This document shows positions 5,603 through 30,601 of a DNA stretch of 64,000 nt, piece after piece. The position numbers and the translations under genes are program-made. Source of the DNA: Pseudogymnoascus verrucosus (taxonomy: Eukaryota); assembly GCA_001662655.1 (NCBI GenBank), contig KV460252.1. One strand, given 5' to 3'. The first letter of the stretch is position 1. Every line of letters begins with the position of its first letter. The notes under the pieces are model-generated. The model saw nothing but the letters and a program-made list of their open reading frames with translations, did not search any database and was not told where the DNA came from.

Positions 5603-6919
<1,317 letters not shown>

Positions 6920-8110: not shown

Positions 8111-8301
8111 AAGTTATAGTTATAAGTTAATTCTAGGCCATTCAAGAGTCTAAGCCCAAACCGTTTTAAAAACGTGGTAGTAATTGTACTATTGGGGGTT
8201 TAATTATAATGTCTAATCATATCAAGTGCTGGTTCATAATTTATGAAGTGATATATTGTAAAAACCACACAGTTATTGAGATATTAATTAATTCGTCAAA
8301 T

Positions 8302-9929: not shown

Positions 9930-11150
9930 GCAGAAGGATACCATCAGATGCGTCTGTTGTGGATAGACCTCTTCATTCATTGCCGTTAAGCCGTTGACAG
10001 ATCTACTGCAGTGAGATACACAGCTCAACGAGTATACAGAGCTCAACGAGTGGGAAAATTCACTTCCTCCCGAGCTTAAGTTAGTCTCATGGGATAGACA
10101 AGCTATGGAAAAAATACAGAATAGCACATCATATATTTTGCTATGCAAGCTTTAACGCTGCAAATATCCTACGATAATATACAGCTCCTGTTAAATCGCC
10201 CTTTGATGACCTACCAGGGGGCATCTACTAAACTAAACCTAGATACTAGTGAGTTGCTAGTCGATGCGCCTCATTCATCACTTGATGTAGCGCTGAACCT
10301 AGATATCCTCGACCTGGGCCGTTCACAATGCTGGAAATGGGCGTTGCGAACATGAGGTGTTGACAGCTATGCTCCAATACTACGATTGGTCGGGAACACT
10401 CCTGCTGCTACAAACCTGGGAATCCATTGCCTAACATCGGGTGTAATGCTAGGAGTACTAGCATTATCAGACTGATCTGGACCAAGAGTACAGGATTGCA
10501 AGGGTGGGATTGCAAGTCTGATCAAAGTTCCTCGAAACTTCGGGCTCAAAATTGTGGTATGTAATCTATGTTGAGATCTTAATGGATCTGATGCACGTTA
10601 TAGCAGCTGGAGAGGTTAAGGCAATGTTATCACAAGATGGTAATTGTTGTGAATCGGATATTCTAAATACGAGCAGAGCAGCCTTTACATGGAATAGGCC
10701 AAACAGCAACATAGGTGTCAGTAAACAGGTACACGGGATGGGGGCGGACGAGTAGCTCTCGGTCCAGAATGAATACTGGTTACGAACGAGTTCCACCTCT
10801 CCGAGTCTGCCCTCTGTTTCTGAAAATACACAAACGCCACCACAGTCACCAGTTCCTTCACTCACCACATATGCGAGCTATGGCACCGACGCCTTTACTT
10901 CTTAATCCGATTTCTCACGCGACTCCAGGGCCGATATGGATTTCGACATCGACCTTAGTACTATCCCAATGCATCAACAGGGCATGGAGCCCGTTTACAA
11001 TGGGGAAGCACAATTTGGAGTCAGAAGCCTAGAGCAATCTCCATCGATGCGCAACATAGGTGTCTCCGCAGACACATTTCCATCGTTGGACCTTCCGGGG
11101 CAACTCTGGATATTGGGCCCTCCTTTCGCATTCCCTAAGGTCGAGATTAG
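9930..11150 (+). pseudogene. Disrupted fungal-specific transcription factor (middle homology region) fragment
   Basis: EWENSLPPELKL...ALTLQISYDNIQLLLNRPL is typical of the Zn2Cys6 TF MHR. Frameshift near 10135-10143, in-frame TGA at 10012, 10353 and ~10473, an 18-nt duplication at ~10016-10051, and no N-terminal zinc cluster found. Confidence 0.65.
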
Positions 11151-11439
11151 AATCCATGCTATTAAATGTTGTCTCATATACTGTTGCTAGTTCATGACCC
11201 TTTATCCATTATGCTTTCCACTGTCATGGTGACCTCTTCGGGAACAGTTCCCCGCTCATGGACCCTCCATGATGGGCTTCATCATCGGCCGCACCGCTTA
11301 CGGGCGGTCCATGGGCAGTTTTGCACTGCACTACTACGGAGTCCTCGAGTTCCTCACCAAACGCAGCATATCATCAACGCGTTTAGTGCTTTCGGAATCT
11401 CGACAATGGGCCTCTATATGAGCGCTCGCACTGCAAGAA

Positions 11440-11739
11440 GGTGTCGTTGATGCGGCTAATGTTCGATGTCTGCGCGATGCTCGTCTGGGTGCCGCTGGGA
11501 TGCGATGCTAAACCCGAAGGCTGCCACGGAAACAGGGAAGGAAGGATAATCAGAGGACTTGTGGAGAATCGTGGAAAAGATGAGTTAAATCAGGGAGTTT
11601 CGTGTTACCGGGCGCCAATATGAGGGAGAACGGGCTATTTGATGTCAAGCACGAGATCGTTTTGGAGCAGGCGGAGGCGCAGAGGAGGGTGAGGAACAAG
11701 GTTGAGGATGCGATTGAGAGATTGATGATCTTTGAATAG
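11440..11739 (+). pseudogene. Possible 3' gene fragment (..ENGLFDVKHEIVLEQAEAQRRVRNKVEDAIERLMIFE*)
   Basis: G-rich, helical-looking reading frame ending in TAG at 11737-11739; the upstream part needs a stop read-through and a frameshift. Confidence 0.3.
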
Positions 11740-11751
11740 GTCATCAATCTC
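11729..11751 (+). repeat. Left copy of 23-bp direct repeat flanking the tRNA pair
   Basis: TCTTTGAATAGGTCATCAATCTC; 21/23 identical to 12141-12163, with a 16-bp exact core TTGAATAGGTCATCAA. Confidence 0.85.
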
Positions 11752-11761
11752 CCAATAATCA

Positions 11762-11843
11762 TCTTTGATGGTCTAACGGTCATGATTTCCGCTTGTCATA
11801 TGACAAAGCGCGGGAGACCGGGGTTCGACTCCCCGTCAGAGAG
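11762..11843 (+). tRNA. tRNA-Asp(GTC) with 10-nt intron (11799-11808)
   Basis: Acceptor stem TCTTTGA/TCAGAGA plus G discriminator, anticodon arm TCCGC-TT-GTC-A..C-GCGGG, T-arm CGGGG-TTCGACT-CCCCG, and a TTTTT terminator at 11876-11880. Confidence 0.93.
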
Positions 11844-11883
11844 AATTGCCTTTCTGAGCTCATGTTCAGATACACTTTTTCAA

Positions 11884-11954
11884 GCATCAGTGGTTTAGTG
11901 GTAAAATCCATCGTTGCCATCGATGGGCCCCGTGTTCGATTCACGGCTGATGCA
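11884..11954 (+). tRNA. tRNA-Gly(GCC), intronless
   Basis: Acceptor stem GCATCAG/CTGATGC plus A, D-loop TGGTTTAGTGGTAAAAT, anticodon arm CATCG-TT-GCC-AT-CGATG and T-arm CCGTG-TTCGATT-CACGG. Confidence 0.96.
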
Positions 11955-12140
11955 CAATGAACAGTATCCAGTTCGGAGATGTATATATTTTTGTACGTGG
12001 GACTTCGACCCGCGTGCTAATTTTTTTTTATTATAAAAATGGAGAGCGGCAGAAAGGTGGGTCAGCTCCGCCGTCGGAGAAGCTCTCGGTGACAACGCAC
12101 CTCTCCTACCAACATGAAAACCAAAAACAACTATAACTCT

Positions 12141-12163
12141 TCCTTGAATAGGTCATCAACCTC
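12141..12163 (+). repeat. Right copy of 23-bp direct repeat flanking the tRNA pair
   Basis: TCCTTGAATAGGTCATCAACCTC; matches 11729-11751. Confidence 0.85.
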
Positions 12164-12962
12164 ATGGACTCTTGTGAAAATTCAAACTGAGAGCTAAAAC
12201 CGTGCGTTAAAAGGTAAAAAATTACACCAATAGATTTATAGTGGGGGGGTATGATAAGAGATAGGGTTTGCCTTTAGCTCATTGGTATCAACCAGATCAA
12301 ACTTCCCCAACCTCAGAGCTCAGCGGAGTACTAATGCGATTGAACTGAAAGGGCAGCAATTGTATCCAAGAAAGCATCCTCGGATCCAGTAGCTCCTCCT
12401 AAATTACTATACTAAGGGGCTGCTTCGGGATGTCACCTGTCATTAAAATAACGACATAAGGTAACCGTAACGGGGCGAGGTGACCGTGACGGGGACCATC
12501 AAAATAACCAAATGAGGTCTTAGCTTCGGAAACAACGTGGTTAATCTGCAGTACTTCGGCAGTTGGCGCTACTTGTGTCTGGGGAAAGTTGTGATGGTTA
12601 CTGTTCGATTTCCCCGCATGGATTTCCCCGCAGTAATGCCTCGAGCCGATAAAATCCTACGTCTAATACAGCCCTGATGAAGTTAAGCCTGTTCGGCGGA
12701 AACGCGCCCCTATTGCCCCACTCCTCCCGAAGGTGCGCATGGGGAAACCTGGGGAACTTGACAATTATTGCTTCGAGAATTGTATATAAACTTAGCATCC
12801 TTTCACCTGTGGGTGTCTTTATGTTCTGTCTTATATTTACAGTCAACCAATACAGCTATTATCTTATTCTATTTTGGATATAGGCTCAAATTCGCATTTG
12901 ACCTGTCCTCAACCAGAAGTTTTTTCTCTCCCAACCAAAGAATTTACTGCTAGAGTGATATC

Positions 12963-14978
12963 ATGGTTGGAGTCTCAAATGAGGCGAGCAGCTCGCGGAT
13001 GCAGCAGCTTACCCAGGGCCGCAGGTTAGGCTTTCGGGGCCTGCTTGGCGCCAATCGTTACCTCCTTTTCTCCTCCCTCTTTGCCTGCATCGGATCATTC
13101 ATGTACGGCACTGATCAGGGGATTCTTTCCAACCTCTTAACAGGACAAAATTTTGCCTCCAAATTCCCAAGCGTTTATAGTGATCCTGTGCTCAAAGGAT
13201 GGGTTGTGTCTGTTTTGCAGTTAGGAGCATGGCTGGGAGCCTTAGTCAACGGCCCATTAGCCAACGCCATCTCGAGAAAATACAGCTTAACAGTGGCTGC
13301 ATTTGTAAGTTTAGCAATTTTGTCTTTCTCATGCTCAACTAAGAATATTATTTAGCTCTTCACCCTCGGCAGCGCCATATGTGCCGGTGCACAAAACGTC
13401 ACCTACCTCTTTGTGGGTCGTATCATAGCTGGGATTGCTGTAGGACAGATCTCCCACGTCGTACCTTTATACATGGCAGAGATCTCACCTTCTGAGTTCC
13501 GAGGAGCACTTGTTTCTTTACAGCAGCTGGGCATTAGTAAGTACAATATCCCTTCTTATGTCTTTGATACCCAGACTAATGCCCTTTTAGCTGCTGGAAT
13601 TATGGTTTCTTATTGGCTTTGTTATGGCACAAGTTTTGCAGGTGGCCAAGCCTGCGATGCAAACGAATCCGCGCCTTTCGGCGATTCCGGAGCCTGGAGT
13701 CCGTATACTGATGTTCCAGAAGGGGGCTGCACTGGGCAGACTGAACTCGCATGGAGATTGCCTTTAGCGTTGCAAGTGGCTCCTGCTCTGGTTCTGCTCT
13801 TGGGAGCGCCGTTCCTGCCATTCAGCCCGAGATGGCTGATGTCAAAGGGACGCGATGATGCATGCCGCGCTGCTATTAGCGAACTCCGGTCATTACCTCT
13901 GGACGACCCGATCGTCGAGACTGAGTACCTTGAAATAAAAGCTGCGGTTCTCTTTGATGAGCGTACAGCTGCAGAACTACACCCTGGCAAAAGTGGAATT
14001 TCTCTTACTTTCGCCAAAGTTGGTATGCTTTTTACGAACACGGGACTTTTTAAACGTCTGGCAACGGGTTGTATTATCATGTTTTTCCAGCAATTCACTG
14101 GCATCAATGCTATCATATAGTAAGTTCATACCTATCCTTGGGGTTCAAATTTACAGGCTAATCTCGAATTATAGTTATGCACCTACAATCTTCGGCAGTC
14201 TCGGACTCAATGCATCCACAACATCTTTATTAGCTACCGGTGTCCTTGGTGTCGTTGATTTTGTATTCACATTCCCCGCAATCTTTTGGGTTGACCGCTG
14301 GGGCCGCCGTAAATTCTTTATGGCTGGTGCTCTTGGCATGATGGTTTCTCACGTCATTGTCGCTGCCATTGTTGGTCATTACGACGGGAACTTTAATGTC
14401 CCTGGTGGTAAAGTTGCTGGATGGGTTGGAGTTGTTTTCATCTACGTAAGGTTACCCGTTGCAACGTTCAAAGAATATTTCTAACTAGAGTTCAGATGAT
14501 GGGCGCTAACTTCTCTTACTCGTGGGGCCCTGTTGCATGGCTGGTGCCCGCTGAGATCTTCTCCCCAGGCCATCGCAGTCAGGCTGTTAGTATTATTATT
14601 AGCTGCAACTACATGATGAATGTAAGTTCTCATAAGCTTCTCTCACAACATGTTTTATCTAACAAATCATTCTAGTTTGTTGTAGGACAAGTGACGCCCA
14701 ACATGCTCGACAAGCTAAAGTACGGGACTTACATATTATTCGCCAGCTTCTGTCTGCTCATGTTTCTCTGGGTCTTTTTCTTCCTGCCTGAGACCCGCTA
14801 CAAAACGCTCGAGGAGATGGACGAAGTGTTTGGCGACAATTCTGCTACGGTTGATCGTGAGCGAATGCAAGAAATTATGGCAGAGATTGGTCTCGAGCAA
14901 ACTCCACAGCAAATTGCTGAGAGGTTGAGCGATGAAAAAGACAGAGAGGAGTACATGGAGAACACAAAAAATGTATGA
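12963..14978 (+). CDS. MFS sugar porter family transporter (multi-exon)
   Basis: GSFMYGTDQG, VPLYMAEISPSEFRG, PFSPRWL, FFQQFTGINAI, VDRWGRR, SWGPVAW and PETRYKTLEEMD motifs; GT-AG introns link the ORF pieces. Confidence 0.93.
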
Positions 14979-15430
14979 ACATTAGCTATATGATAGACAT
15001 CTTCTTAATATAGAGGGGTCAAATCTATTCGCAGTTCGGCCGTATACTATAGCTTATGCTTAGGTGCTCATGTGAACTGCATTTAGGTGGCAGTGAGGCG
15101 GAAGACAGAGAGCAGACCCCTAAAAATATTACGGGCAGTTGAAAGTTCTCGGAGATAATCTATAAATTAAACTCGCGTACCTAGAGGATACGGCTAGAAA
15201 TGGCCCCTTATGAGACCAACAAGGGCAATTCATCATGCAATACGGGAACCACCCACGTAGAGAATGGGGGCCAGGGGGGACTCATTTTTTGCAGAGAGTA
15301 GATATAATGCCAAAAGCCAAAACAGGCTTCTTACGACAAGCGGACACAGACATAGAATGTATCAAAATGGTTCTGCATAGAATACTAAAGCCGTCTATTG
15401 ATTATAGAAATCTATTGGTTTTTATACAAA

Positions 15431-16592
15431 TTAATGAGTCTTGCCCTCAACAGCGCCTTGCGTTCCCTCCAGATCACTATACAATCTCCATTGATAGTCT
15501 AGGCTGGGATCGTTGAATCTTGCCTTGATGTCCAACTCAGCAATTTTCTCCATGTCTTCAGCTTCCATCTCGAAGTCGGCCTCCAAGTTCTGCTGGATCT
15601 GCCAGTCAATGACACTCTTGGGAATCGCCGAGCGTCCACTGTTCACAGCCCAAGCTAGAACAACCTGCACAGGGCTCCTCCCATATTTCTTTCCAATCTC
15701 TTGTAGAACAGGTTGGTCAGTCACTCGGGTCATGTGCGAGACCTCCTTGCTCCAACCGGTGTTTCGGTAGAAATCGTTCATGTTGCCCAGCGGGCTAAAT
15801 TGGACGACGTGGATTCCCTTGCTTCGAAGCCATGCGTTGAAGTCCTTTTGCTGGAGATATGGGTGAACTTCCATCTGATGGACGGCTGGTACCTTTGAAT
15901 GGAGACTCAGTAAAGTTAAAAATTTTGGGTGATTGACAGTGTTTGTTAGTACTTACTGTATCAGATTGATCGAGTAATTGTTGGATTTCTCCCTTGCTAA
16001 AATTGGACACCCCGATGGCCTTGGTCTTCCCCGTCTTCACAAGCTTCTCCATCGCCTTCCATGTCTCTACAAAACTTGTCTTTCCCAGAATCATCTTTCC
16101 ATCCGCGTCGCGGGGGAAACGATCTTCTCCACGGGCAAATGTGCAAGGATAGTGCATCATCAACAAGTCGACATACGGTGTGTCGAGATCCCGCAGGGAA
16201 TCGTCAAGAGCGCTCTCAACATCGTCGGGATGGAAGTTGTTGCACCACAATTTGGTGCCGACGCAAACCTCCTCGCGAGCAACACCGCTTTCTTTGATTC
16301 CATGTCCCACCTGCTTCTCAACGTCGTAGACGCGCGCTGTGTCGATTAGGCGGCAGCCTGCTTTCAACGCCCGGCTGACAGCATCGACTTGTGCATCGGC
16401 ATCTTGGAATGTACCAAACCCAATGGCTGGGATTTTAGCTCCTGTGTTAAGCGTATGCCGGGTCGACCTCGTTGAAGCAGCACGGCGGGCATTTCGTGAA
16501 TGAAAAGATAGCACTGTTTGCACCTGGGTCCTCTTCAAAAAAGTGTTCAAAGCATTCGATGTCCGCACAGGTAGAACGAATATAGAAGCCAT
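15431..16592 (-). CDS. Aldo-keto reductase with N-terminal mitochondrial-presequence-like extension (2 exons)
   Basis: LNTGAKIPAIGFGT, catalytic tetrad D(TA)/Y/(GT)K/H, KAIGVSNF, QMEVHPY and IPKS; intron ~15956-15893. Confidence 0.92.
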
Positions 16593-16899
16593 AATGCTGC
16601 AAGTCGAAAGGATACGATAGCCGGTAGGACTGCGTTGTACTGTATCACTAGTCGGGCTGTTAGAGTTTCGTTGCCAGCAAAAAACTCCGTGAACTTCGAA
16701 ATCCTTATAGGGGTGCTATTCGTATTATTATTAAGCCCAAGTAAGAGACTCAATGGATGGGATGTAATAATATACACATCGTTGAGACGGCCATCGCTAG
16801 ACTCGGGACATTGCGCACATGTCCTGTAACCCCGCGTTCGTTCCGCGCCGCCATGACAGTGTAGTCCCCGTAACGAGGCACAACGCCAACACGGGAGCT

Positions 16900-17078
16900 T
16901 ACGGAGTACAGTGCTCCATCAACCTCACCAAAGCTAGTGTTGTAGGAATAACCACCACTTTCTCAAGAGTACGCTTCTCCAATTGTCCGTTTACGGAGCA
17001 CAATACTCCATCAGCTTCAGCAAAGCCAGTGTTGTGACAACAATCAGCACCTTTTCGGAGTATGCTCCTCCACCCGTC
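16900..17078 (+). repeat. Two imperfect ~92-bp tandem repeats
   Basis: TACGGAGTACAGTGCTCCATCAACCTCACCAAAGCTAGTGTTGT.. (16900) versus TACGGAGCACAATACTCCATCAGCTTCAGCAAAGCCAGTGTTGT.. (16992). Confidence 0.8.
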
Positions 17079-17333
17079 TATAGAAATAGAAGTGGTGCAG
17101 CAATGTGCAATTATTTCTCGGATTACTTCGTGCTAATTGTAACTTGGCTTAAGATCGCATTGTAATTTGTAGTCGTTGCAAAGAGACTCGACCTCTTGTA
17201 AGATTTAAGAAACTATGAAATATTAGGACAGCAAGAAGAAAGGTATCAAAACTATACTGCTTAAATCAGGTAATGAGGAATAGACTCTATTGTTTTGTTA
17301 CCATTACATATAAACTAGTAGATACGGTCCATT

Positions 17334-18240
17334 TTAAGGAAGTGTAAACCCTCCGTCGATGATAATATTTGACCCTGTCATATAGCAAGCAGCATCGCTG
17401 GCTAGAAAAACGTAGAGCTGCAGAACCTAGTTAGTATCCAGTGCGTGAAACTTTAGACAATCCACTTACGCCCTTCAACTCCTCGGGGTTGCACACACGC
17501 CCTGCGGGAATCATAGACAACCATTTGTCAATGAGTTCTTTTGGTTGTCTTGTCAACACTACCAGAATGAGTCAGTTTCCATGATATCGGATGGTAAGGG
17601 CAAACATACTCTCAGTCATGATGTATCCTGGTGAAACACAATTCACTCTTGCAAAATCGACCCATTCTACAGCAAGACTCTTCCCGAGTTGTAGAGCACC
17701 AGCCTTTGAGGAATTGTATGCAGCCTGAGTCTGTGGGACGTTTACGAGGTTGGCACTGACAGATGCCGTGATAATCAGGTTCCCTCTTCCTTGCTTCTTG
17801 AAGATCCGCCCAGCTGCTACTGCGGTCCACATAACACCATCGTAGTTGACACTATTCATATAATTCCAGGTTTCTTCATCGTACTCCAGAGATGGGACGT
17901 TTTGGCACACCCCTGCGTTCGCGATGACAATGTCGAGGCGGCCACGGCCGAATTCGGTTGCTATCTGCTCAATCGTCTTTGCTATCGTTTCTCGTTTTGT
18001 TACGTCGGATTGAAAGGCCTGAACTCGTACTCCTGTTTTTTCAGCAATCTTGGCTGCGATCTCATGGGCATCGGTTGCTTTATGGTAGATAATTGCAACG
18101 TCGGCTCCAGCCTCGGCGAGACCAGTAACGACTTGACGACCGATACCCCCTGAGCCACCTGTAACCAGTGCTATTTTGCCCTTGAGGGAGAACTGCGATA
18201 ACACAGGCGTATTGAGGTCAGCCGGCTGGTAGAGAGGCAT
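17334..18240 (-). CDS. Short-chain dehydrogenase/reductase, L-xylulose/sorbose reductase (mannitol DH)-like (3 exons)
   Basis: TGGSGGIG, NAG, NVPQTQAAYNSSKA (YxxxK), RVNCVSPG and C-terminal YMTGSNIIIDGGFTLP*. Confidence 0.9.
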
Positions 18241-18938
18241 ATTGAAAGATTGGTCAAAGGACGTTCTGAATTAAAATAAAGGTCGGACAGGACGAACTGA
18301 GCGGGAAATGCGGACAACACTGTTGGAAGGGAACTGCTTCTTTATTACAGGCCATGAGACAATTCTCCCTCTGTTCCTAAGCCAGTCTTTATAACCCACG
18401 CAAGCAGATCTCCCGGCAAGTAAATACACGCTACATGAAGATTATATCAAAAGTCTCCGTCAATCTGTTTTTCATTTGAATTGTAACTACTCTTCCGAAG
18501 CTGGTATTGATGGGCAGTTCCCGGGTTCAGCCACAAAGCGATTAGTACCTCTCGGGACGAGGCCATACTCGTAACGAGGTCCCTCGCTATCATGGTTTAA
18601 TTCACCATCAAAAAAGTCAATTCCCGGATCCGCACATGTCTACAACCCGAAAAGTGGATTTGCCATGCGCCAATTCCCCATGGGGCCCCGCGGATTTGAC
18701 AGGTCTTAGAGCGACTACCATCCCCAGGATCGGGATTGCGTTTATCATTAATGCATCAGCTTATGTCCAATTTCCGGAAAAATATAACTACTTATGACTC
18801 TCTAATTCCTCATAGAAATCCCGTACAATATATATATAGACTAGCTACGATCTATATGCGCTGGCATAGCAAGTGTTTAAGTTACCCAAACTTTTATAGA
18901 ACTTGTTTTACTTTTTGTCATATTCCCTCGCAAGCAGG

Positions 18939-20741
18939 ATGGGGTTCTTCTCCTTGGATCAGCACCAAGGGTGGATGGTACAGTCGAAATTGGAGAAAGG
19001 TCGTCTTTTGTTTGCAGCCAACTGCCTGGCTGGCATGTCCATATTCTTCTTCGGTAAGTGTACTCTAATCGAATTGTGATAGTGAGTAGTGGTGTTAATA
19101 ATATGCAGGTTACGATCAGGGAATGATGGGTGGTGTCAATCAAAGCCCAGACTATATCAACCTCATGAAGTTCGGTTATGTCGACGATGCAGGCGTTCCT
19201 GTTGTCACAGATACCCTTTTACAGGGGGGGATAATGGCGGTTTTCTACCTCGGAACGCTCGTTGGCTGTCTGTTCGGCGGCTACTTCGGTGACAAATACG
19301 GAAGAATCAACACTATCGGTCTAGGTGCTGCCTGGGGAATTTTTGGAGCTGCTCTCCAATGCTCCGCAATGAACTCCAACTGGATGATCGGCGCCAGGCT
19401 TGTCAACGGTATCGGCACAGGTATCTTGAATGGAATTGTTCCGGCTTGGGCATCGGAGCTGTCTGACTATACTACTCGTGGAACATTCATCGCCATGGAG
19501 TTTACTCTCAATATTTTCGGTGTTGTCGTCGCATATTGGTTAGCATATGGAGTTAGTTTCATTGATGGTGGAGAGTCAGCATTCCGTTGGCGTTTTCCGA
19601 TTGCCTTTCAGATAATCCCACTTCTGTGTCTCCTTGCTACTTGCTGGGCATTTCCAGAATCTCCTCGCTGGTTGTCTAAAGTCGGAAGGAACGAAGAGGC
19701 CCTCTACATTCTCCAGAGACTCCGAGGCACGGAGGGGACAGACGCCGGTGTCGCCGAAGCCGAACTTAATTCCATTAAATCCGTCATCGAACTCGAACAA
19801 CACGCCGAAGGTACCACTTATATCCAGATGTTTTTCGGTCTCAAAGATGGCAAGCTACATACAGCCCGTCGCGTTCAGTTGGTCATCTGGCTGCAAATCA
19901 TTCAATGTTGGACTGGTATCGCCGGTGTTACCATGTATGGGCCGACTATCTTCCATATCGCTGGTTTTGGGCCCGAGAAGTCGCAGTGGATATCCGGCCT
20001 GAACAATATATTCTACATGTTCTCAACACTTATCTGTGTTTTCACGATTGACCGCATCGGGCGCCGCTGGACTCTGTATTGGGGCTCCGTGGGACAAGGC
20101 ATTGCTATGTTCCTAGTTGGTGGCCTTTCTAGAGGTGGATTGGACGCAAGAAACGCTGGAAATATCAACAATGCAAACCAGTGGGGTGCTGCAGCGGCGA
20201 CTATGATCTATGTATATACTTTTATTTTTGGAGCAACTTGGCTGACGGTGCCTTGGCTGTATCCTGCCGAAATCTTTCCTCTTCAGGTTCGTGCTAAAGG
20301 AAACGCATGGGGTGTTGTGGGATGGTCGATTGGAAATGGTAAGTAAAGACAAACCCAAACCTCAAGAATTATAACTGACTATTTTTAGCCACACTCACTT
20401 TAGTCCTTCCATATATCGTCAATGCGATTAACGAAAAGATGTTTTACATTTTTGGAGTTGTCAATGCTCTCAGTATTCCTATTGGTATGTCTTCGACTAC
20501 AATTCCGTTTTTTTATGTGGCTGAGACCTAATATGGAACAGTTTGGGCACTATATCCAGAATCAAACCAGCGAACGCTTGAGGAGATGGATCTTTTGTTT
20601 GCTGCTGACGCGCCTTGGACCTGGTCTGCTGAGAAGAAATTCAAAGAGCTTAAGGAGGAGCGTGACGCAGCAGGTCTGGATGGTGATTTTGAGGCGAAAG
20701 CTGCACACCCAGCGAGCCATGTTGAAGATAATAAGGTGTGA
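18939..20741 (+). CDS. MFS sugar porter family transporter (STL1-like polyol/glycerol symporter subtype; 4 exons)
   Basis: FFGYDQG, GDKYGR, WRFPIAFQ, FPESPRWL, IDRIGRR, WLYPAEIFPLQVRAKG and YPESNQRTLEEMD. Confidence 0.92.
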
Positions 20742-21650
20742 GAGGAAGAGGTGTAGCTCTAGGGGAAATATGTTAAAGAATGTTTGATACTTCGTTTCAT
20801 AAGCTTCTCTTTGTTTCTTGTAGTCCCACGACGATAAAGTAGTGGCACAGGAAGAAACAGAGCGAGGCTTGCAGAGGAGAGATCGCTAGTTTTTGGGTTA
20901 AACAGCTTTATCTATTCTACAACAAATACAGTAATTATTCCAATCAACTTTATAAACTTATCTTGGATTGTGCTGTTGTTTGTTATTTATTCAGCCTATT
21001 CTACCTTGCCGAAAAATATTTATTTTAGATAGCTGTCGTATACGGGTCTTATGCCTGTCCAGGGACTCAATCCTGAGTTGCGAACGATGGCCTTTTCGGA
21101 TCACCGCTATACGACCCATGTTAGAGGCCGGGGACCGTCTTATGCCCGCAAATTGGGCTGGACTGTCATACAATCAGCATACGACGACTACCAATTTGTA
21201 TGGTGTACTGATAAGGTAGTCGGAAGTCCGCCGAGTGTGTCTGTAGATCCTGGGCTTGGCGGGGGCCGGGTCCGGGGGTGATGGGTGTAGTGGGATTTGG
21301 GTTCGCCAATGGGAATCCAATGGCGGAGTTGCGGGTGTTGGTTGGTTGTGTGGAGTGCCAGGATTTCCCGGGGACATCGTGCCCCGGACAGCATCCTGGT
21401 ATGTGGCTGCCACATGTGCCGTGGATGGAACCCTGTCGTCCTCGTTACGAGGCAGGTGTGTCGAGACGAGGTGATGGGGATCATCAAGTTATAGGAACGA
21501 CGTGCGACAACGGACAGCTCGAGGGCATATATAAACGATTTCGTCAGCTTTGACCACAAAATATCACTCTTAGAAACCAATACATCGTCATTATCAGCAT
21601 TATCTTCTCCCGAATTTTACTTTTTCGATATACAGAATTCAACCGATATC

Positions 21651-22672
21651 ATGGGTAGCGAAGTAACTGCTGCGGCGGCCTCACACCTCCCCGTCCAGAT
21701 GCAAGTCAATCTTGGAGGAAAAATAATTGCCAGTATGCATTCATTCTTCTATTGCTCTGTCCACCTCAGTATTTTCTAACAAGTTTACCCAACTAGTTAC
21801 TGGCGCAAATCGTGGCATTGGTCTCGGCATCGCTGAGTGCTGTTTGGCCAACGGCGCCTCAAAAGTATACAGCATTGATTACGCAGACGATGTTGGCGAC
21901 GACTTCAAAACCCTCTCAAAAGTGTACCCGGGCCAGCTATTTGCTCTGAAGGCGGATGTGACGAAGGAGCAGAGTATTACGGAAGCTATCGACAAGGTGC
22001 TTGAAGAGGCGGGCGCATTGCACGGTGTGGTGGTCAACGCAGGACGAACAAATCACAAGAGTGCGCTCGAGTTCACGACTGAAGAGATTGAGGCCTTGTT
22101 TGCTGTTAACGTGAGTTCCCATCTCCCCCTCTCTCAATTTTCTTTCATGCTCCCCCCCTCCCTGTTAGAAATGACCCTTGCTAACGCGAAATGCAGCTTT
22201 TCGGAGCCTTCTACACTGCCCGCGTCGCCGCTCGCGCTTTTATCAAACAAAACGTCAAGGGAAGCATCGTATTCACAGCATCGATGGCTAGTTACCGCCC
22301 CAACAAAGTCGTCCCCTCGACACCATACGGTGCCTCGAAGGGTGGAGTCCGCAACATGACACATACGTTAGCCATGGAATGGGCACAGTACGGTATCCGA
22401 GTGAACTCCGTCTCTCCCGGACTTGTGAAGACGGCTATGACTTACTGGGTTGAGAAGCAAGCCGATTGGGAGACGCAATTGAAGTACTACCGGGGCATCC
22501 CGAGGCTCGCAGAGGTGCAGGAGTTGGGTGGAGCATATGTTTATCTGCTGAGTGATTCTGCAAGTTATACAACTAGCATTGATATCCCAGTGAACGGTGT
22601 TATTGGCAGTAAGTATTGATTCTACGTTGTCTAATCTACTCTAATCATACTGACAACTTTCTAGTCTGCTAA
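21651..22672 (+). CDS. Short-chain dehydrogenase/reductase (4 exons)
   Basis: VTGANRGIG, VNAG, SMAS, PYGASKG (YxxxK) and IRVNSVSPG; final micro-exon ends in TAA at 22670-22672. Confidence 0.9.
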
Positions 22673-23021
22673 ACGATTTACATAGAACGTCATGAATTAA
22701 TAGAAATAGAGTATATAAAATGCAGAAGTAAATCATTTCTTATACGCTATGGTACATCATTGTGATTGTTTGATATTTGTGAGATTGTGGGCCGATTAGT
22801 ATTGTCAATGTCTAGTATAACGCTCACGATCTGCGTTGTGAAAAGGTTTCTGTAGTTGTGGTGACAATAGGATCAATCCGCCATGGGGTATATAAGTAGG
22901 TCGCAGGTTCGAGAGCCACAGGGAGTAAAATAAACTAGTCTGGCTGGTGCTGTTGCTGTCAATCGGTGATTGATCTTATATTTCTCGGAGCTAGAAAGAA
23001 GAGAAACTGCCTTTCCTGCTT

Positions 23022-24159
23022 TCACAACCCAAGCAAATCCCCTTTCAGCTCCGGGTTTAACTGTGCCCTCCACATCTTTTTCTCATTCAATAAAAACATC
23101 TCCCCTCCCTTCCCAAAGCAAAAGTTTGCACATCCACCAGGGACATAAACCTTTCCAATCAACATTCCTCCAGGGCTCCAGACGTGCACTCCATCTCCAC
23201 ATCCACTGTATACGTTCCCCTCTGTGTCGCATTTGATACCATCAGGGATACCCACATCAGCAAAGGCGAACAGTCGCTTATTGGCGAGGAATGGACCACC
23301 GTGGCGTGTTATAACGTCAAATGCATATCTGTGAAGAGTTGTCAATTGGACGTATTCGTTTTGCGGACAAATGGTATACTTACATGGAGGCAGCCTTCGC
23401 CGGAGAATAAATCCCAGAAGTATGTGTACAGCCAGCCATACCTGCAGTGTCCGTAATGTACAAAGTCAGCTGGTCAGGAGAGAAACATAGTCCATTTGGT
23501 TTCGTGAGGCTGTCATCCATCGCCCTGATATCTCCGGTTCCGGGATCGTATCGGTATGTCTGTGGGGGCAATTGTGGCAATGGTCGAATGCCCTGTTCAT
23601 GCCCGTATGTTGGGTCCGTAAACCAGATACTCCCGTCCTTGTGAATGACCACATCATTGACCGAATTAAATTGTCGTCCGTGATAATCACTTATGATCAT
23701 TTCAGTCTTATACGGCTCCTCCGGCTTCATGTAGACCAGACCGCCAGGCTCAGTGAGAGAGCCCTGCTCACAGAACAAGATGCCTTCCCGATAATTGACG
23801 CCGCCATTAGCTAAAACAATGTCTGGCTCGATACTATCGACATGATAGCCTTTCCAATCGTTGTAAACTCTCGAAATCTGGACATATTTCTCCCCAGCGC
23901 AGAGTAGATGGTTGCTCGTGATATATACTTCTCCCGTGGCAGGCATATACACACCTGCCTCGTGAGCAAATGGTTCAATTTGTTCTGCGATGACTTTGAT
24001 AGTGGGGTTGCTGCCCAGTATCTGAGAGAAGCGTTCATCGTGAAGGACAAAGCCTCCTTCTGGGAGACAGCCCTCGGCGAATGGTTCTCGGAAGTATTTT
24101 TTACGCATTGAAGCAAGCTCCTTGCGAGGATAGACGATGCATGACTCCGAGACAGACAT
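23022..24159 (-). CDS. SMP-30/gluconolactonase/LRE family lactonase (2 exons)
   Basis: FAHEAGVY, ANGG, FNSVNDV, IWFTDPTYG, KPNGLCFSPD and GIPDGIKCD metal-binding beta-propeller motifs; intron ~23383-23329. Confidence 0.9.
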
Positions 24160-24613
24160 TTTTGCTGTAGACGTCGTTTTAGGCCACAAGTCAAAAAGTT
24201 GGAGGAGCCGGGTTGAAGGTAAAGGTGGGGTGGGTCATGACCGAAATATATATAGTTGTTTTGTTAGGCGCGCGTCTCGTTTATCACGCAACCTCCCGGA
24301 AACAGCCAGAACTTATTACACAAAGCCATGTGTAAAGTGGATAATGGTATATGCGCCTGTTTTCCCCTTTTTGAACCTCTTATCAGTACTCTTTTTAATG
24401 GTTATTAAATATGAGATTTATAGGAGAATGGAAAGTGTTGTCGCCGTTGATAATTATACTATATGAATCTTGTGACCCATGAAATTGTCATTCATTTATG
24501 ACCAATTTATTACATGAATTCAGACAAGAGCCACTGTAATTGCCCAAATTATCATACACAATGTGGACTTTTTGCATTGATATAGTTGTTTCATTATACT
24601 CGTAGAATTGGTA

Positions 24614-25794
24614 TTAACAAACTGTGTATCCACCATCAACCTTTATTTCTTGCCCAGTGATATACCTCGATGCAGCAGAAGATAAGAACGCAACGGTTCC
24701 CATGAGTTCTTCTGGTGCCCCCATCTTGCCTTGGGGGATTTTGGATTCCCACTCTGCCTTTAATCCAGGGTTGTCGACAAGAATTTGAGCGTCCCTAAGG
24801 CGGAGTCAGCATCAGAGAGAATGCAGAATAGTATGATATCGACTCACATGGCAATTTCAGTAAGCATGTACCCTGGGCTTAGACAATTCACGCGGATATC
24901 CTTATTCGCCCACTCGACCGCTAAACTTGCAGCCAAATGCCTGACGGCCGCTTTGCTTGCATTGTACAAGGCCTGTGGCTGGGGCACATTCACAATGCTG
25001 CCAGAGATACTTCCGATAAACACCATGTTTCCGGCTATTTGACGTTCCATCATGTGCTTCGCAACGCCTGTCGCGAAATAGTAGGTACCTTCAACATTTA
25101 CGCCCAACATCCGCTTGATCCGTTCTGGCTGGAAATCGATGGCGTCACAATTCTCACAGAAGCCTGCGCAAGTTACCAGATTTGTGATCTGTGAATGCTG
25201 CGTGAGGATTTCGGCAATGGCAGCGTCGACATCGGATTTCGCGGAGACATCGGCATAGTGAGCTGTTACTTTGGGAGTCCTTTTCGGACACTAGTTAGAG
25301 CATGAGACATTGGGACGAAGGGGAAGGCTCACTTTTGATTGGGGTATGTCTCTGAAAATAATCTCGCAATGGCTACAGCTTGCTTTTTTGCCTCATCTTC
25401 TGTTCATGAATTAGTACAGCTTTATGTATCAATGAAGGGTAGATTGTAACTTGCTGTTTATGTCAACAATTGCTAAATCAGCTCCGCTCATAACGAGCGC
25501 CTTGCTCATCGCGAGGCCAAGTCCTCTCGCTCCGCCAGTAATTACTGCCGTCTTTCCTGTGAGCGAGAAGAAGGGCAATGTTGGATTGAAAGCTGGCGTA
25601 GTAGCGCCTGCATTCTCTCGACTATTCTTTGACATTGTTCCCGCTTTGATTGATCCGTCTACCTGTGATATTTGCTGGAGCTTTGCGTAATTTTGGAAGG
25701 TTCTTATCGGAGTCCGGCTCGTACGCGCAAGGTTTATCGGCGGCCAACAGCGAAGAGCTCTTCTTGCAGTTGACAACGTTCGTAGGGAAGACAT
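24614..25794 (-). CDS. SDR, D-arabinitol 2-dehydrogenase-like, with mitochondrial-presequence-like N-terminus (4 exons)
   Basis: ITGGARGLG, LVTCAGFCEN, NVPQPQALYNASKA, RVNCLSPGYM and YITGQEIKVDGGYTVC*. Confidence 0.88.
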
Positions 25795-26192
25795 GGTGTA
25801 AGAAATATTTGTAGAGGTTCACGGTTCCATAAACATAAGTTAGAGCAGATACATAGCATCACAAAATCTCCATCATACCGTCGAATCGTCAGAAGTTTAT
25901 GGTAATGCGGGGTGAACAAGCAAGACAAAAGTGACCCACAGGGACGACACTAGCTCTGACCCCGAGACGAGGCACAATCTAGGTCGGTACGGGGAAGGCT
26001 AAACTAGATAAGGCCCTGGAAACGAACCCGCAATCGACAAAAGGCGGGGATCGACCATATCTCGGAAGTTAGTCGGCAGCTATCTATTGAACACCACTCC
26101 ATGCAGCATGGACGTAAAAGGGAGTAGAGCACGCCTGCATTTATCCTCGTTCCGACACTTCTTCATTCCGGTGTGGATATCCACGTGGAGCT

Positions 26193-28336
26193 ATGGACAC
26201 AACACGGCGTCTCGCGAGTGAGGCACCGCCTCGAAAGAAACGAAAAACCCGCGGTCGCGGGCTCCGTAAATCCACAGGATGGTAATTCATCTTCCCGCCC
26301 GAGCATCGACAGTTTAGCCCAAGCTGACATGAACGAACTAGTATTACCTGTAAACGACGTCACTTGAAGTGCGATGAAGCTACCCCAGACTGTGGACCTT
26401 GCTCAAAAAGCCGACAAGTCTGTCTATATGCAGCCTCTACTCAGATGCAAGGCTCCCTTCAAACGGGACAAGATAGTGCAGATGCAGATGCTCACAGACC
26501 CTCTACATCGCAATGGCATTCCACATACCCGGATCCTGATCGTGAGCAAGCTGCAAGTGGTTTGCTGCGATTGACCGCCGAGGCTGCAGCTGCCTCATCA
26601 TCATTGCCTGTAGATGCAATATCCCCACCGACCGACACGCCGTACTTAGAATCCTCTGTTCAAGAGCAGTTTGAAGCAGATACGGAAATAGCACTCACTC
26701 CCCCTGATGCTGCTTTCTATAGATGGTTTAACCTGCTCGCTAGTGATCTCACTTCAGAAAAGGCAGGTGGAACACGCCTTTGGACATCTTTGACAGGTGT
26801 ACCAGAGACAAGTGCGCCAGAGACGAGCGCAGTAGATACAATCGATAGTTTACATTTACCGGTATCTTCACATCAAACATCTACAGATAGTCTCTTAGTT
26901 CAGGATGTTTCTCTCCTGGCATCCCCCGCCCCGAATGTGTCCGCGTCTTTCTCATCAAGACCACCGTATACCAAACCCCCAGATCAAGATGCATGGCAAG
27001 GGTCCGAACCAGCAAAGTTATCAGATCAGGAACATGACCTTTTCGAAAATTTCGTGACTAAACTAAGTGCTTGGGTGTGTCTATCTCTGATTTTGCACCC
27101 GTTGCATAGACTAATAATTACTATTCAGATCGATCTTTATGACCCAACAAGGGGTTTTGCTATTTTAGTACCACACCTAGCAGTAAGTGGATGCCTTTGA
27201 GACAGGCTGAGACAAGCCTCTCTATCTCACTCACTAATGAACCTTAGATGCATGACGCCGGCTTAATGAATGCCATCTTGGCACTATCGGCGCGGCAACT
27301 ATCAATAAATATCAATGCCACAGAGGAGCAACGAGACCGCAATATTGGGTTGCAATACTACTACGAGACCCTCCATTACGTACAGCAAGCTATGCATTAC
27401 GATTCTTACACCGTTAGCCGTGAGCTCTTAGCAACAGCACTTATAATTTCTACATATGAAATGCTAGATGACTTTCGAAGTGGCTGGGAGCGACATTTGA
27501 AGGGTGTCTTCTGGATTCAAAGAAGTCAAGTCATCCACGGAGATTCAGGAGGGCTACAACAAGCCATATGGTGGGCGTGGCTGCGCCAGGATATATGGGC
27601 AGCCTTCCGCGAGCGTCGCAAGACCCTGAGTTTCTGGACTCCGGCAAAGCCCTATACTGCTATGACTTCTTATGAAGTGGCTACTCGGATTTTATGGATA
27701 TTCGCAAAGGTTGTCGACTATTGCTCGGAAGAAGCAATCCAAGCTGGCGAAGGAAATCTGCAATTGAGAATAGACAAGGCAGGAAGCATATTTGAAATGC
27801 TAGATGAGTGGCAGAATAATCTCTCGGTTGAGTTTGCCCCTTTAGCTGGAAGGAAGGGCAACCCATCTGATGTTTTTGAACCGATCTGGATACATCCGCC
27901 AGCGTTCGGTAAGCTGCTCAATTTAACCACTGTATATCCGCTGACCTGTAATAAAGGCAATTCTATCCAGGTCCATTGTGCTGGTCGTATTCTTATCCTC
28001 CTCCATAAACCTTCTCTTAAAGGTATGCGGGAATACATGGCAAATCAGAAGCTATTAGCAAAGGCCGCCGAGACTGTCTGTGGGATTGCCATGACTTTGA
28101 CTGATGCTGCCTCGAGCCTGGTGTCGTCTCAATGCTTGTACATTGGTATGTGGAATTTATATCCAGACAGGCTGCATATGCTAAAATTAGTTATAGCTGG
28201 ATTATGTATTCAAGACTCTCGGCAGAGGGAGGCTGTCATATCTCTCATTGATGCCTGCCACCGAAGGACGGGTTGGCCGACTCGGTCTCTAAGTCATGAT
28301 CTCAGAGAAGAATGGCAGCAGTCAGATGTCGAGTGA
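26193..28336 (+). CDS. Zn(II)2Cys6 transcription factor (Fungal_trans_2-type C-terminal domain), likely regulator of cluster 1
   Basis: After intron ~26282-26341: CITCKRRHLKCDEATPDCGPCSKSRQVC; C-terminal LMNAILALSA, W..HLKGVFWI and AIWWAWLRQD. Confidence 0.92.
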
Positions 28337-28797
28337 TTTAACCTCTTCTGGACACTAAAGGTTTACAGTATGTACGCTTATGAATTATGAGTTACGAATT
28401 GTAAAGATGGGCATAATCTATAGCTTATGATGTATAACAAATATGATTTATCTGGATGAAGTAATTCGCCATTCTTTCTTCCTGGGACCAATCCCGAGAT
28501 ACTTAAATGCCTATGGGTCAAAACCAAACCTTATATGCCCCATAGTTATCCGTAGCCATTAATAGCATCAGATCGGAATCTAACCTGCCGAATTACATCG
28601 CGGGGTTAGTGACGCAACAGGTGACCATTACCCGAGGGACGCGTCTCGAGGCTACCACCGATAACCGGACTATAGTAATCCGTCTAGTTCAGCATCAACA
28701 AAACAGTTATGTATGAACTAAAAAAGGCTTCTGCCTTCCTTGTCCCCAAAACAATATTTTCCAGCACATCTTTTATATTCCACTACCTTTAGCAACT

Positions 28798-29745
28798 ATG
28801 GCTCCTCCGCCTGACTGGAAATTATCAAACAAGAGCAATGTAGTGCTCACCGCCGCCGAAAAGGGCAAATATGGCGTTATAGCAGCTATAGCATACAACA
28901 TCGAACATATCATCGGCTTCATAAAAGCGGCGGAGGTCGCCAAATCACCTATCATCATTCAATTTTTCCCCTGGGCGGTGACATATTCTTCTGGATTACT
29001 CATTCGAACCGCTGCAGACGCCATATCTCGCTCGCCCTTACGAGACCATATTGTATTACATATGGACCATGCCCAGGATTACAACTTGATCAAAGAATGC
29101 GCCGACAATTTGCCGTTCGATAGTATAATGGTTGATATGAGCCACTATGAAAAAGAAGAAAATCTGCGCAAAACACGCGAGTTGGTGGCCTATTGTCAGG
29201 AGAAGTGCATAGCGACTGAAGCCGAGCCTGGTCGTATAGAAGGAGGGGAAGACGGCGTCGTGGACACGGAAGGTTTGGAGGGAAGCAAAACTACTCCTGA
29301 GGAGGTCGACGAGTTTGTAGATACAGGAGTTGATGCTCTTGCGCCGGCGTTTGGGAACATGCATGGAGAGTATTGGAGTATTGGGCCACAATTGGATTTC
29401 CTTCGGTAAGTAACAACCGTCCAAGCTGCGTGATTATCTACACTGCTAACGCTTTGGTCCTCCTCTTTCAGCCTTGGCCAGATCCGCAAAAACATTAGTA
29501 GCAGAGTTCGAATTGCTCTGCACGGTACCAATGGCTTCCAGGAAGATCTATTGAAGAAATGTATCGCGGAGGGATGTTCTAAGATTAACGTGAACCGACT
29601 CGTTCTGGATGATTACTACGACCACCTAAAAGCAAATGCGCCTACCATGTCACAGACGCAGCTTATGACCGAGGGGACGCAAAAGGTAGTCGACCTCACA
29701 GTGAAGTGGATGGAAATCTGTGGTAGCGCCGGGAAAGCAGTTTAA
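28798..29745 (+). CDS. Class II (Zn) ketose-bisphosphate aldolase, second non-glycolytic type (2 exons)
   Basis: LHMDH, FDSIMVDMS, EAEPGRIEGGEDG, AFGNMHG, ALHGT and SKINVN; intron ~29406-29471. Confidence 0.92.
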
Positions 29746-30601
29746 TGATACATTATCAGAAGTTATAAAAGCATACATACAATTGAAGCCTTCGAACTTT
29801 TGAATGGCACGAGAACATATCATGTTTTATCACGAGACGAATGAAATTGGTGCCAATCACACCCGAATCTTCTCAGTTTTGGGTCAGTTAGTAACAACCA
29901 TCCGAACCATCCGCTTCCAAATCCACGTTCTATAGCTATAGGTACTTTGCCTACTCGAGTGCCGTGGATTTACGTACGTAACAGGCAAGGTTCAGGCATG
30001 TCCCTCGGGCCCACTTCGGCCGGACCCTCATCCTATCCCCGTGGGCTCTTCTTTCACCTCCACACGGCCCGAAAGAGGCGTTTTAAGCTTCTGGCTCACC
30101 TCTGTACGGTTTCATGCAGATCACGGCGATGAAAAATGTCTTCGGCGCCTTGTTTATAGTTGTTGGTCTGGCATTCTCAGTGTTTATAAGTGATAATTGT
30201 ACTTGTTAACGTACCGGTTAACGGGCCGATTGCCCCAGGTAACTTTGAAACAACCCCGTACCTGTCTCCTTGGCTGGGGTCTAAATACGTGTCTATTATT
30301 GGCTTTTATTAGAGTGGCATTTCACGGAAGGATTCATGCGAATATTTGTCGCGGGGTTATGCTTAATGGGCTTAAGCGCAACTATTCCACTAATTAAGAC
30401 ATCGGCCCTTTGCTGCTTATATTTTTGTAGATCCTTACTACTGTTACTATATCCACAGTTGTCAAATAGCTTAACAAAGAGTTTATATATTTGACGATGG
30501 AGGCGTTTTGAGGGGATGATCCCTCACTCCATTCCGAAGGGGGTGGAAAACTATTGCCACTTGGGTACGATTACACGTCTACTTACGCTAAGAACGTCAA
30601 C

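Follow-up and report, generated by a model that had tools for sequence, protein, structure and literature searches.

Nine adjacent genes of the soil fungus Pseudogymnoascus verrucosus encode two sugar porters, a regulator and six putative metabolic enzymes, which raises the question of what they break down and whether they do so together. They lie at 12963-29745 of a 64,000-nucleotide stretch of contig KV460252.1 (assembly GCA_001662655.1), referred to here as the window. The original prediction for this locus described a self-contained unit for import, redox conversion, lactone hydrolysis and aldol cleavage of a sugar, polyol or aldonolactone, an interpretation that proves right in outline and overstated in detail. 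The cluster is a conserved, uncharacterized variant of a familiar kind, the fungal catabolic cluster. Its conserved core consists of a fungal-specific short class II Zn enzyme of the fructose-bisphosphate aldolase (FBA) fold, a Zn2Cys6 regulator and a short-chain dehydrogenase/reductase (SDR), usually accompanied by an SMP-30-type lactonase and a sugar porter. As to its role, we tentatively favor a sugar-acid or lactone route that would end in Zn-dependent C-C cleavage of a keto-aldonate, a reading that we hold to be plausible yet short of probable.

Gene content and splicing

The features of the cluster are as follows.

12963-29745: whole cluster, from the ATG of MFS1 to the stop codon of the aldolase
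12963..14978, plus strand: MFS1, major facilitator superfamily (MFS) sugar porter; 6 exons, 583 aa; Pfam Sugar_tr on two exons (77 and 63 bits)
15431..16592, minus strand: aldo-keto reductase (AKR); 2 exons, 365 aa; Pfam Aldo_ket_red (108 and 46 bits)
17334..18240, minus strand: SDR1; 3 exons, 267 aa; Pfam adh_short (143 bits)
18241..18938: SDR1/MFS2 divergent intergenic region, 698 bp, from the gene models
18939..20741, plus strand: MFS2, sugar porter; 4 exons, 546 aa; Pfam Sugar_tr (250 bits)
21651..22672, plus strand: SDR2; 4 exons, 271 aa; Pfam adh_short and adh_short_C2 (61 and 75 bits)
23022..24159, minus strand: SMP-30/gluconolactonase-family (SGL) protein, here the lactonase; 2 exons, 360 aa; Pfam PF08450 (61.4 and 30.1 bits, cut-off 26.3)
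24614..25794, minus strand: SDR3; 4 exons, 338 aa; Pfam adh_short (103 bits)
25795..26192: SDR3/regulator divergent intergenic region, 398 bp, from the gene models
26193..28336, plus strand: Zn2Cys6 regulator (TF); ~654 aa; Pfam Zn_clus and Fungal_trans_2 (26 and 37 bits)
28798..29745, plus strand: short class II FBA-family Zn enzyme, here the aldolase (ALD); 2 exons, 293 aa; PF01116 (191 bits on exon 1 and 57.4 bits on exon 2, cut-off 25.5)

Spliced gene models were built from stop-to-stop open reading frames (ORFs) and splice-site scans, and a Pfam profile search on the unchanged in-frame exon translations confirmed the family of each of the nine genes. All of them contain introns, and fungal-type short GT-AG introns of ~50-90 nt occur across the region. 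The location, the gene families and the two divergent pairs (SDR1/MFS2 and SDR3/regulator) are therefore as originally predicted.

Matches to solved structures add detail for several products. The best PDB matches of the AKR are AKR1A-type aldehyde reductases (4.5e-40). SDR1 is of the mannitol-dehydrogenase/carbonyl-reductase type, with Candida parapsilosis carbonyl reductase (1.5e-52) and NADP-mannitol dehydrogenase (3e-44) among its PDB matches. The SGL protein matches the gluconolactonase PDB 3dr2 (2.4e-16), whose N134 and N191, taken to be metal ligands, line up with the NSxND and PNG motifs of the protein. With both the family profile and these Asn residues present, it is a predicted SMP-30/gluconolactonase. 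MFS2 is 99% identical to a Pseudogymnoascus sp. protein that is likewise 546 aa long.

Comparison of the predicted introns with sequencing-run contigs offers a view of splicing. Contigs of run X1, which we guess to be RNA, carry GT..AG joints at predicted introns in seven of the nine genes, which are thus seen in spliced form, and no such joints appear in two other runs. The joints lie at 14119/14175, 14445/14496 and ~14621/14679 in MFS1, 15892/15957 in the AKR, 17417/17470 and 17558/17610 in SDR1, 20338/20389 in MFS2, near 21732/21802 and 22106/22197 as well as at 22608/22665 in SDR2, 24794/24848 in SDR3, and 29405/29472 in the aldolase. From them we read transcription of the conserved cluster, on the guess that X1 is RNA. 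The lactonase and the regulator lie outside X1 cover, which speaks neither way.

The same contigs refine individual models. In SDR2 they revealed an extra intron (22609-22664), and the C-terminus of the model was revised. In SDR3 the two remaining introns are predicted from the reading frame. A GC-AG intron predicted at 25400-25454 of this gene (donor GCAAGT) is the sole splice that restores the frame there, and no sequencing-run contig confirms it. In the regulator, the intron 26282-26341 splits the first Cys codon, and the last exon may contain additional unrecognized introns.

Conservation of the cluster across related loci

If the genes act together, they should also be found together elsewhere. 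The aldolase exon was aligned with 23 relatives, and 80 metagenome loci encoding relatives (L numbers below) were searched by tblastn with the nine spliced models. The motifs LHGTN[GDS] and NVN[RK] define the subfamily of the window enzyme and assign 51 of the 80 loci to it and 29 to other subfamilies. Dereplication at 95% nucleotide identity left 24 groups with at least 3 kb of flank. At least one partner from the window stands beside the aldolase in 22 of these 24 groups, as compared with none of the 29 loci of other subfamilies, and the grouping therefore exceeds chance. The individual partners, with their identity to the window gene, are distributed as follows.

Regulator: 15/24 groups, 30-69% identity; an orthologue adjoins the aldolase in 24/80 loci
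SDR2-like: 11/24 groups, 47-90% identity; adjoins the aldolase in 14/80 loci, the most conserved enzyme partner
SDR1-like: 5/24 groups, 51-64% identity; relatives adjoin the aldolase in 6 loci
MFS1-like: 5/24 groups, 33-82% identity; an orthologue 67-82% identical stands beside the aldolase in L031/L032
Lactonase: 3/24 groups, 43-68% identity; beside the aldolase in L010/L015, L020 and L043
MFS2: 1/24 groups (L020), 61-72% identity

Annotated genomes display the same association. Judging from locus tags, in Conoideocrella and two Fusarium species the aldolase lies at a distance of 3-5 genes from the orthologue of MFS2, and aldolase and lactonase are 9 locus tags apart in Coleophoma. Nine contigs, some of only 9-18 kb, carry both aldolase and lactonase matches, and the nearest relatives of these two proteins come from other Leotiomycetes. 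Co-location is conserved across species, which is the mark of a fungal catabolic gene cluster, and the predicted functional neighborhood with its own regulator and transporters is borne out.

The predicted nine-gene unit fares less well. Partners occur in two arrangements. The first (L020/L010/L043 type) combines MFS2 or another porter with SDR2, lactonase, regulator and aldolase, with MFS2-SDR2-SGL-TF-ALD in L020. The second (L028/L031 type) is MFS1-SDR1-ALD-TF together with a DenD-like gene. By gene content, the window looks like the union of these two variants, which are found separately elsewhere. None of the 80 loci yields a tblastn match (E<=1e-10) with the AKR, nor do they hold a clear orthologue of SDR3 (identity of 36% or less).

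These two outsiders have another feature in common. The AKR carries an N-terminal extension of 45 aa, which is covered by an X1 contig spanning 15736-16623, and its first 46 residues contain 8 Arg or Lys and no Asp or Glu. SDR3 starts with a presequence-like stretch of the same bias (8 Arg or Lys and no Asp or Glu in 45 aa). Such extensions of ~45 aa with many Ser and Thr are typical of mitochondrial presequences and are lacking in the other cluster enzymes, so that by sequence the AKR and SDR3 look mitochondrial.

Hence the locus might be a mosaic, in which a core of MFS2, SDR2, lactonase, regulator and aldolase, perhaps with MFS1 and SDR1, lies beside an unrelated AKR and SDR3 with other, possibly mitochondrial, functions. 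We consider this unlikely, though it deserves some weight. The missing orthologues, the presequence-like N-termini and the fact that MFS1 and SDR1 travel in another variant (L028, L031) than MFS2, SDR2 and lactonase (L010, L020, L043) all agree with it. In contrast, SDR3 and the regulator have the 398-bp divergent promoter in common, the AKR lies between conserved members, and AKRs of other subfamilies are found near related aldolases in L070 and L078. All nine genes are also collinear over 12500-30500 in a 249-kb contig of a related strain (run X2); however, with only ~3% differences between the two, this collinearity carries little weight. It is similarly unlikely that the AKR and SDR3 are passengers, be it under a sugar-acid reading or under the ketose-phosphate reading weighed below.

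The X2 contig also departs from the window at one spot: 180 bases of 22818-22999, which separate the 3' ends of SDR2 and the lactonase, give way there to 225 different letters.

The short class II enzyme and its phosphate pocket

The identity of the pathway depends largely on the reaction of the enzyme at its center. The spliced aldolase model aligns end to end with relatives of 293-294 aa. Its closest solved structure is PDB 3pm6, a "putative fructose-bisphosphate aldolase" of Coccidioides immitis (8.7e-62 on exon 1), which also gives the C-terminal exon its sole PDB match; the relationship to YdjI and AgaY is distant. When aligned with E. coli FbaA, GatY and YdjI, the enzyme retains the Asp-His pair, the GGEDG-loop Glu and three His, residues to which we ascribe catalytic roles or, for the three His, metal binding. 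The enzyme thus has the PF01116 profile and the catalytic residues of the family.

What it lacks are two presumed phosphate ligands, a Ser and a Thr. Where FbaA has HGGSG and NxxT, the window enzyme reads HGTNG and NVNR, and its subfamily HGTNG and NVN[R/K], which places Asn and Arg/Lys at the positions of FbaA Ser267 and Thr289. The side chains of these two residues presumably hold the phosphate of dihydroxyacetone phosphate (DHAP). Sister fungal subfamilies read HGADP/NINK, HGAGT/NVND and HGTNE. The structure 3pm6 has the NVNR motif in common with the window enzyme but belongs to the HGADP subfamily, whose metagenome relatives adjoin LtnD-like genes, and the name of the entry assigns no tested function. 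The HGAGT/NVND subfamily always adjoins a flavocytochrome-b2-type FMN dehydrogenase with a cytochrome b5 domain (L062, L064, L068, ~8160-10849).

Databases label the relatives tagatose- or fructose-bisphosphate aldolases. The GatY/KbaY profile TIGR01858 gives 98.6 bits on exon 1, which makes up 69% of the protein, against a cut-off of 443.55, and Pfam scans of the window revealed neither a GatZ-like gene nor a kinase. From these features, the database name of the enzyme family is probably wrong.

The family also appears to be fungal. Prokaryotic relatives are at most 39% identical in 35 of 36 loci, and the four bacterial contexts that we annotated (L085, L091, L097, L104) are sugar-phosphate operons of the phosphotransferase system (PTS), ROK, PfkB or ABC type. 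This distance, together with such ordinary operons, indicates a separate fungal lineage, and the bacterial contexts are uninformative on the fungal function. L053-L080 were considered as bacterial loci and rejected, since their neighbors are eukaryotic (Zn2Cys6 regulators, PHD, SET, WD40); they therefore represent fungal paralogous subfamilies. One 2.4-kb contig filed under a cyanobacterial (Stigonema) metagenome-assembled genome, L084, encodes an aldolase 63% identical to that of the window and is probably fungal (lichen) DNA binned into that genome.

The altered pocket permits a more far-reaching idea. Since the Ser/Thr ligands have given way to Asn and Arg/Lys, the substrate would be carboxylated rather than phosphorylated, and fungi would possess an unrecognized non-phosphorylative sugar-acid pathway built on a re-tooled FBA-fold Zn enzyme. 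This is possible, but we regard it as doubtful. To the same doubtful degree, the enzyme would then decarboxylate 3-oxo-aldonates, as a non-homologous analogue of OtnC and human C11orf54, or cleave 2-keto-aldonates to hydroxypyruvate and an aldehyde.

Neighboring genes and the proposed route

Genes beside the aldolase in the wider family give a hint at the kind of substrate. A PF01370 DenD-like gene stands beside it in 13 of the 80 loci (10 dereplicated groups), among them L028, L031/L032/L052 and L034 of the same subfamily as the window enzyme. Against the D-erythronate dehydrogenase equivalog NF043036, this gene reaches 323.4 bits at a cut-off of 325 (L056). An LtnD-like gene of 446 aa takes a similar place in 6 of the 80 loci (5 groups), with 270 bits against NF043037 (cut-off 350). 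Kinases and isomerase-like genes are found as well. L079 and L080 contain a dihydroxyacetone kinase above cut-off (TIGR02361, 713 bits versus 575) together with RpiB-like and TIM-like genes, and further Dak-like or RpiB-like matches occur in L023, L026, L034 and L039, those of the Dak type being weaker in L026 and L034. In L020, an FGGY pentulose kinase (TIGR01315, 310 and 394 bits on two exons) and a Zn-dependent alcohol dehydrogenase lie inside the cluster. Such genes in related clusters leave the predicted self-containment unsupported.

Within L079, the LtnD-like, FBA-like (HGADP subfamily), Dak, RpiB-like and TIM-like genes lie side by side at 7965-16111, identically in L080, and by their families these loci are a candidate non-orthologous fungal L-threonate or C4 pathway.

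The window itself holds none of the auxiliary functions. Pfam scans of 78 flank ORFs of at least 110 aa and 59 near-cluster ORFs of at least 60 aa detected no kinase, dehydratase or isomerase domain, and FGGY, Dak, RpiB-like, TIM-like, DenD-like and LtnD-like queries from the related loci found no tblastn match in the window. The predicted absence of the first three enzyme types accordingly stands.

The sugar-acid or lactone route is favored because the DenD- and LtnD-like neighbors and Dak provide a sugar-acid theme, because the lactonase is conserved in the cluster with motifs aligned to the gluconolactonase 3dr2, and because the phosphate pocket is altered and no kinase is present in the window. 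We infer its substrate class, step order, cofactor preferences and cleavage chemistry from the genes at hand. The route would start with import of a small sugar acid or lactone, the candidates being C4-C6 aldonates (L-threonate, D-erythronate) or a hexonate derived from ascorbate or uronate. A lactone would be opened by the lactonase, and an NAD-type SDR (SDR2 or SDR3) would oxidize the hydroxyl adjoining the carboxylate to give a 2- or 3-keto-aldonate. The Zn enzyme would then form an enediolate and break a C-C bond, either by decarboxylation of a beta-keto acid to a ketose or dihydroxyacetone, or by retro-aldol cleavage to a C3 unit and an aldehyde. NADPH-type reductases, namely SDR1 and the AKR, would reduce the carbonyl products, and the regulator would turn the gene set on. 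The aldol cleavage originally proposed is one of two possible chemistries, with decarboxylation of a beta-keto aldonate equally compatible.

The residue after the second beta-strand is acidic in SDR2 and SDR3, and SDR1 has basic residues there. We take an acidic residue to favor NAD and a basic one to favor NADPH, and such a cofactor split would suit two oxidations and two reductions.

Several observations weigh against this route. No LtnD or DenD homologue was found in the window by tblastn, and the nearest bacterial relatives of the aldolase are found in ordinary operons for hexose phosphates or amino sugars that include PfkB and ROK kinases. None of the three SDRs is close to the characterized L-threonate 3-dehydrogenase Ltn3D. 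The structure 4DYV, which is 57% identical to Ltn3D, is not among the 60 best PDB matches listed for SDR2 or SDR1, and SDR2 was rejected as a Ltn3D orthologue on that ground. Being unconserved beside the aldolase and mitochondrial-looking, the AKR and SDR3 fit poorly into a single cytosolic pathway. The promoters do not reveal common control either: no 8-mer is common to at least 4 of the 7 cluster promoters, and CGG-spacer-CGG/CCG pairs occur at best in 4 promoters (4 sites versus 2.5 expected), giving no shared promoter motif. Moreover, a related cluster contains the FGGY pentulose kinase of L020, the Dak, RpiB-like and TIM-like set of L079 would, as we understand it, also fit an erythrulose-phosphate route, and a phosphate ester would suit an Arg/Lys at the "phosphate" position equally well.

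The last three points lend themselves to a serious rival, a ketose-phosphate route with an unlinked kinase, which we judge to be doubtful on balance. Here, polyols or rare ketoses (erythritol, threitol, pentitols, sorbose) would be imported and oxidized by SDRs to a ketose, with the kinase encoded elsewhere, and the class II enzyme would be a true aldolase that releases DHAP and an aldehyde for reduction by the AKR. The intact PF01116 catalytic residues agree with such a role, as do the characterized relatives in PDB and NCBIfam, all of which are ketose-phosphate aldolases. SDR1 is of the mannitol-dehydrogenase/ketose-reductase type, and some relatives of MFS2 bear the database name "Sugar transporter STL1", STL1 being presumably a glycerol/polyol symporter. 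The kinases and isomerase-like genes of L020 and L079 could serve this route, and the Arg/Lys at the Thr289 position could still bind phosphate. Nevertheless, the window lacks a kinase, and among nine long related loci scanned with Pfam only L020 has one. The conserved lactonase would have no role in a polyol route, the DenD- and LtnD-like neighbors indicate acids, not polyols, and both Ser and Thr phosphate ligands are replaced.

Two further explanations concern the purpose of the chemistry. The reductases and the Zn enzyme might handle toxic carbonyls (dihydroxyacetone, glycolaldehyde or methylglyoxal-type compounds) under stress instead of processing a nutrient. In the excerpts of PMC3037901, the Magnaporthe gene MGG_00039, a "ketose-bisphosphate aldolase class-II" that may or may not be an orthologue, is listed as induced 4- to 9-fold in planta and under every in-vitro stress treatment, and an AKR and a carbonyl-reductase-type SDR1 would fit detoxification. 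Nutrient catabolism is instead the typical setting for a pair of sugar porters, a lactonase and a pathway-type Zn2Cys6 regulator, and the synteny with aldonate dehydrogenases agrees with it, which makes a stress role very unlikely. Most improbable of all is that the enzyme runs in the aldol direction and builds an unusual sugar to be exported. The reaction of class II aldolases is reversible and transporters are present, yet Pfam scans detected no secondary-metabolism backbone or tailoring genes in the cluster, and the transporters are of the sugar-porter uptake type.

Comparison with known pathways

The sugar-acid or lactone route most resembles the bacterial degradation of tetronates. The excerpts of PMC12994016 describe a four-step route from L-threonate or D-erythronate to DHAP. 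They further describe an SDR, an L-threonate 3-dehydrogenase, that oxidizes the 3-OH of C4-C6 aldonates, and decarboxylation of the 3-oxo acid to DHAP or dihydroxyacetone, the latter being a possible product with DhaK acting next. They also name the breakdown of ascorbate (vitamin C) as a source of threonate and erythronate. As in the proposed route, an aldonate is oxidized beside its carboxylate, possibly by an SDR, before metal-dependent C-C cleavage to a dihydroxyacetone unit. The likeness extends to the DenD or LtnD homologues that adjoin members of the fungal aldolase family in 19 of 80 loci (13 DenD-like, 6 LtnD-like). In contrast, the window has no LtnD, DenD, OtnI, OtnK or OtnC homologue, and its Pfam scans show no DUF1537 kinase or AraD/FucA-type domain. 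Its C-C enzyme has the PF01116 fold, as opposed to the AraD/FucA-type class II aldolase fold of OtnC, and the window further encodes a lactonase, two sugar porters and a Zn2Cys6 regulator.

The E. coli ydjE-L cluster is similar in composition, as it combines the PF01116 aldolase YdjI (PDB 6ofu) with the AKR YdjG, the transporters YdjE and YdjK, two dehydrogenases and a regulator. It differs in its dedicated kinase YdjH, in having Zn-dependent alcohol dehydrogenases instead of SDRs and in lacking a lactonase. YdjI itself keeps HGASG and NIHTE at the phosphate positions and is distant from the window enzyme (2.2e-18). The erythritol cluster of Yarrowia lipolytica, which we take to consist of EYD1, EYK1, EYI1, EYI2 and EUF1, presumably resembles the window in C4 catabolism, an own regulator and an SDR-type first step. 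It would differ in its kinase and two isomerases and in the lack of an aldolase and a lactonase; Dak, RpiB and TIM queries are unmatched in the window.

The animal glucuronate-xylulose pathway (AKR1A1, SMP30, CRYL1, C11orf54, DCXR), as excerpts of PMC4870679 and PMC12337341 present it, offers several parallels: a reductase of the AKR1A kind, a lactonase of the SMP-30 family, ketose reductases of the SDR type, a keto-aldonate step that depends on Zn, and alternating NAD and NADPH steps with no phosphorylation. However, no CRYL1 or C11orf54 (DUF1907) domain appears in the Pfam scans of the window, and any equivalence would be non-orthologous. The excerpts of PMC12337341 report an animal Zn-dependent decarboxylase of beta-keto-L-gulonate and state that the animal genes leading from L-gulonate to xylitol are typically absent from fungi; those of PMC4870679 list the animal pathway and introduce a different route for A. 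niger.

The non-phosphorylative fungal pathways for D-galacturonate, L-rhamnose and L-fucose, as far as excerpts of PMC6231085 and PMC12370193 cover them, are alike in their clustered or co-regulated dehydrogenase or reductase, lactonase, aldolase, AKR, regulator and transporter. They differ in needing a sugar-acid dehydratase and a pyruvate-type aldolase, neither of which was found by Pfam scans of the window. According to excerpts of PMC6231085, a tagatose-bisphosphate-type aldolase was suggested for A. nidulans and not found in A. niger. Among other candidates, the Trichoderma L-fucose regulator system proved unrelated, with another regulator type and a dehydratase route, and a Trichoderma erythritol paper and an A. 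flavus table were likewise unrelated to the cluster. In line with the predicted lack of a matching described pathway, no paper characterizing this cluster or the fungal short PF01116 family was found in open PMC and bioRxiv full texts.

Flanking regions

The cluster is bordered upstream by RPA34, a Clp1-like gene and a pepsin-type protease, followed by ~3.7 kb without a Pfam domain. A 310-aa ORF at 8305-9234 (minus strand) has no Pfam match, and over 9235-12962, directly upstream of the cluster, none of the ORFs of at least 60 aa bears a domain. The downstream side holds a GH71 glucanase and an apparently separate nitrogen-compound cluster. In this second apparent cluster (~33000-45400), MFS transporters and a purine/cytosine-type permease are joined by a Zn2Cys6 regulator (37112-38818), by an arginase-family enzyme at 39663-40697 and by an aldehyde dehydrogenase at 43917-45361, and from these families it may serve guanidino-compound catabolism. 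Over the housekeeping genes at either end (1-8000 and 54000-62000), GC content is 0.52-0.56; it is mostly 0.45-0.49 in the central 46 kb with the metabolic clusters (8000-54000), one bin of 0.53 at 46-48 kb being the exception.

Significance of the cluster

How fungi process the C4-C6 sugar acids that arise when vitamin C and uronates are broken down is poorly charted. The cluster provides a concrete, conserved gene set for this question, centered on an enzyme family with a solved structure (3pm6), a bisphosphate-aldolase label that is probably wrong and a differing phosphate pocket. It also offers a context-based link to aldonate dehydrogenases and dihydroxyacetone kinase. Should the re-tooled enzyme prove real, fungi would have a route for L-threonate, D-erythronate and L-gulonate derived from ascorbate or uronates and for their lactones, of which the window would represent a lactone-starting variant. 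An enzyme of this family that works on carboxylates would add a new reaction type to a textbook fold, and the automatic names of its relatives would be corrected.

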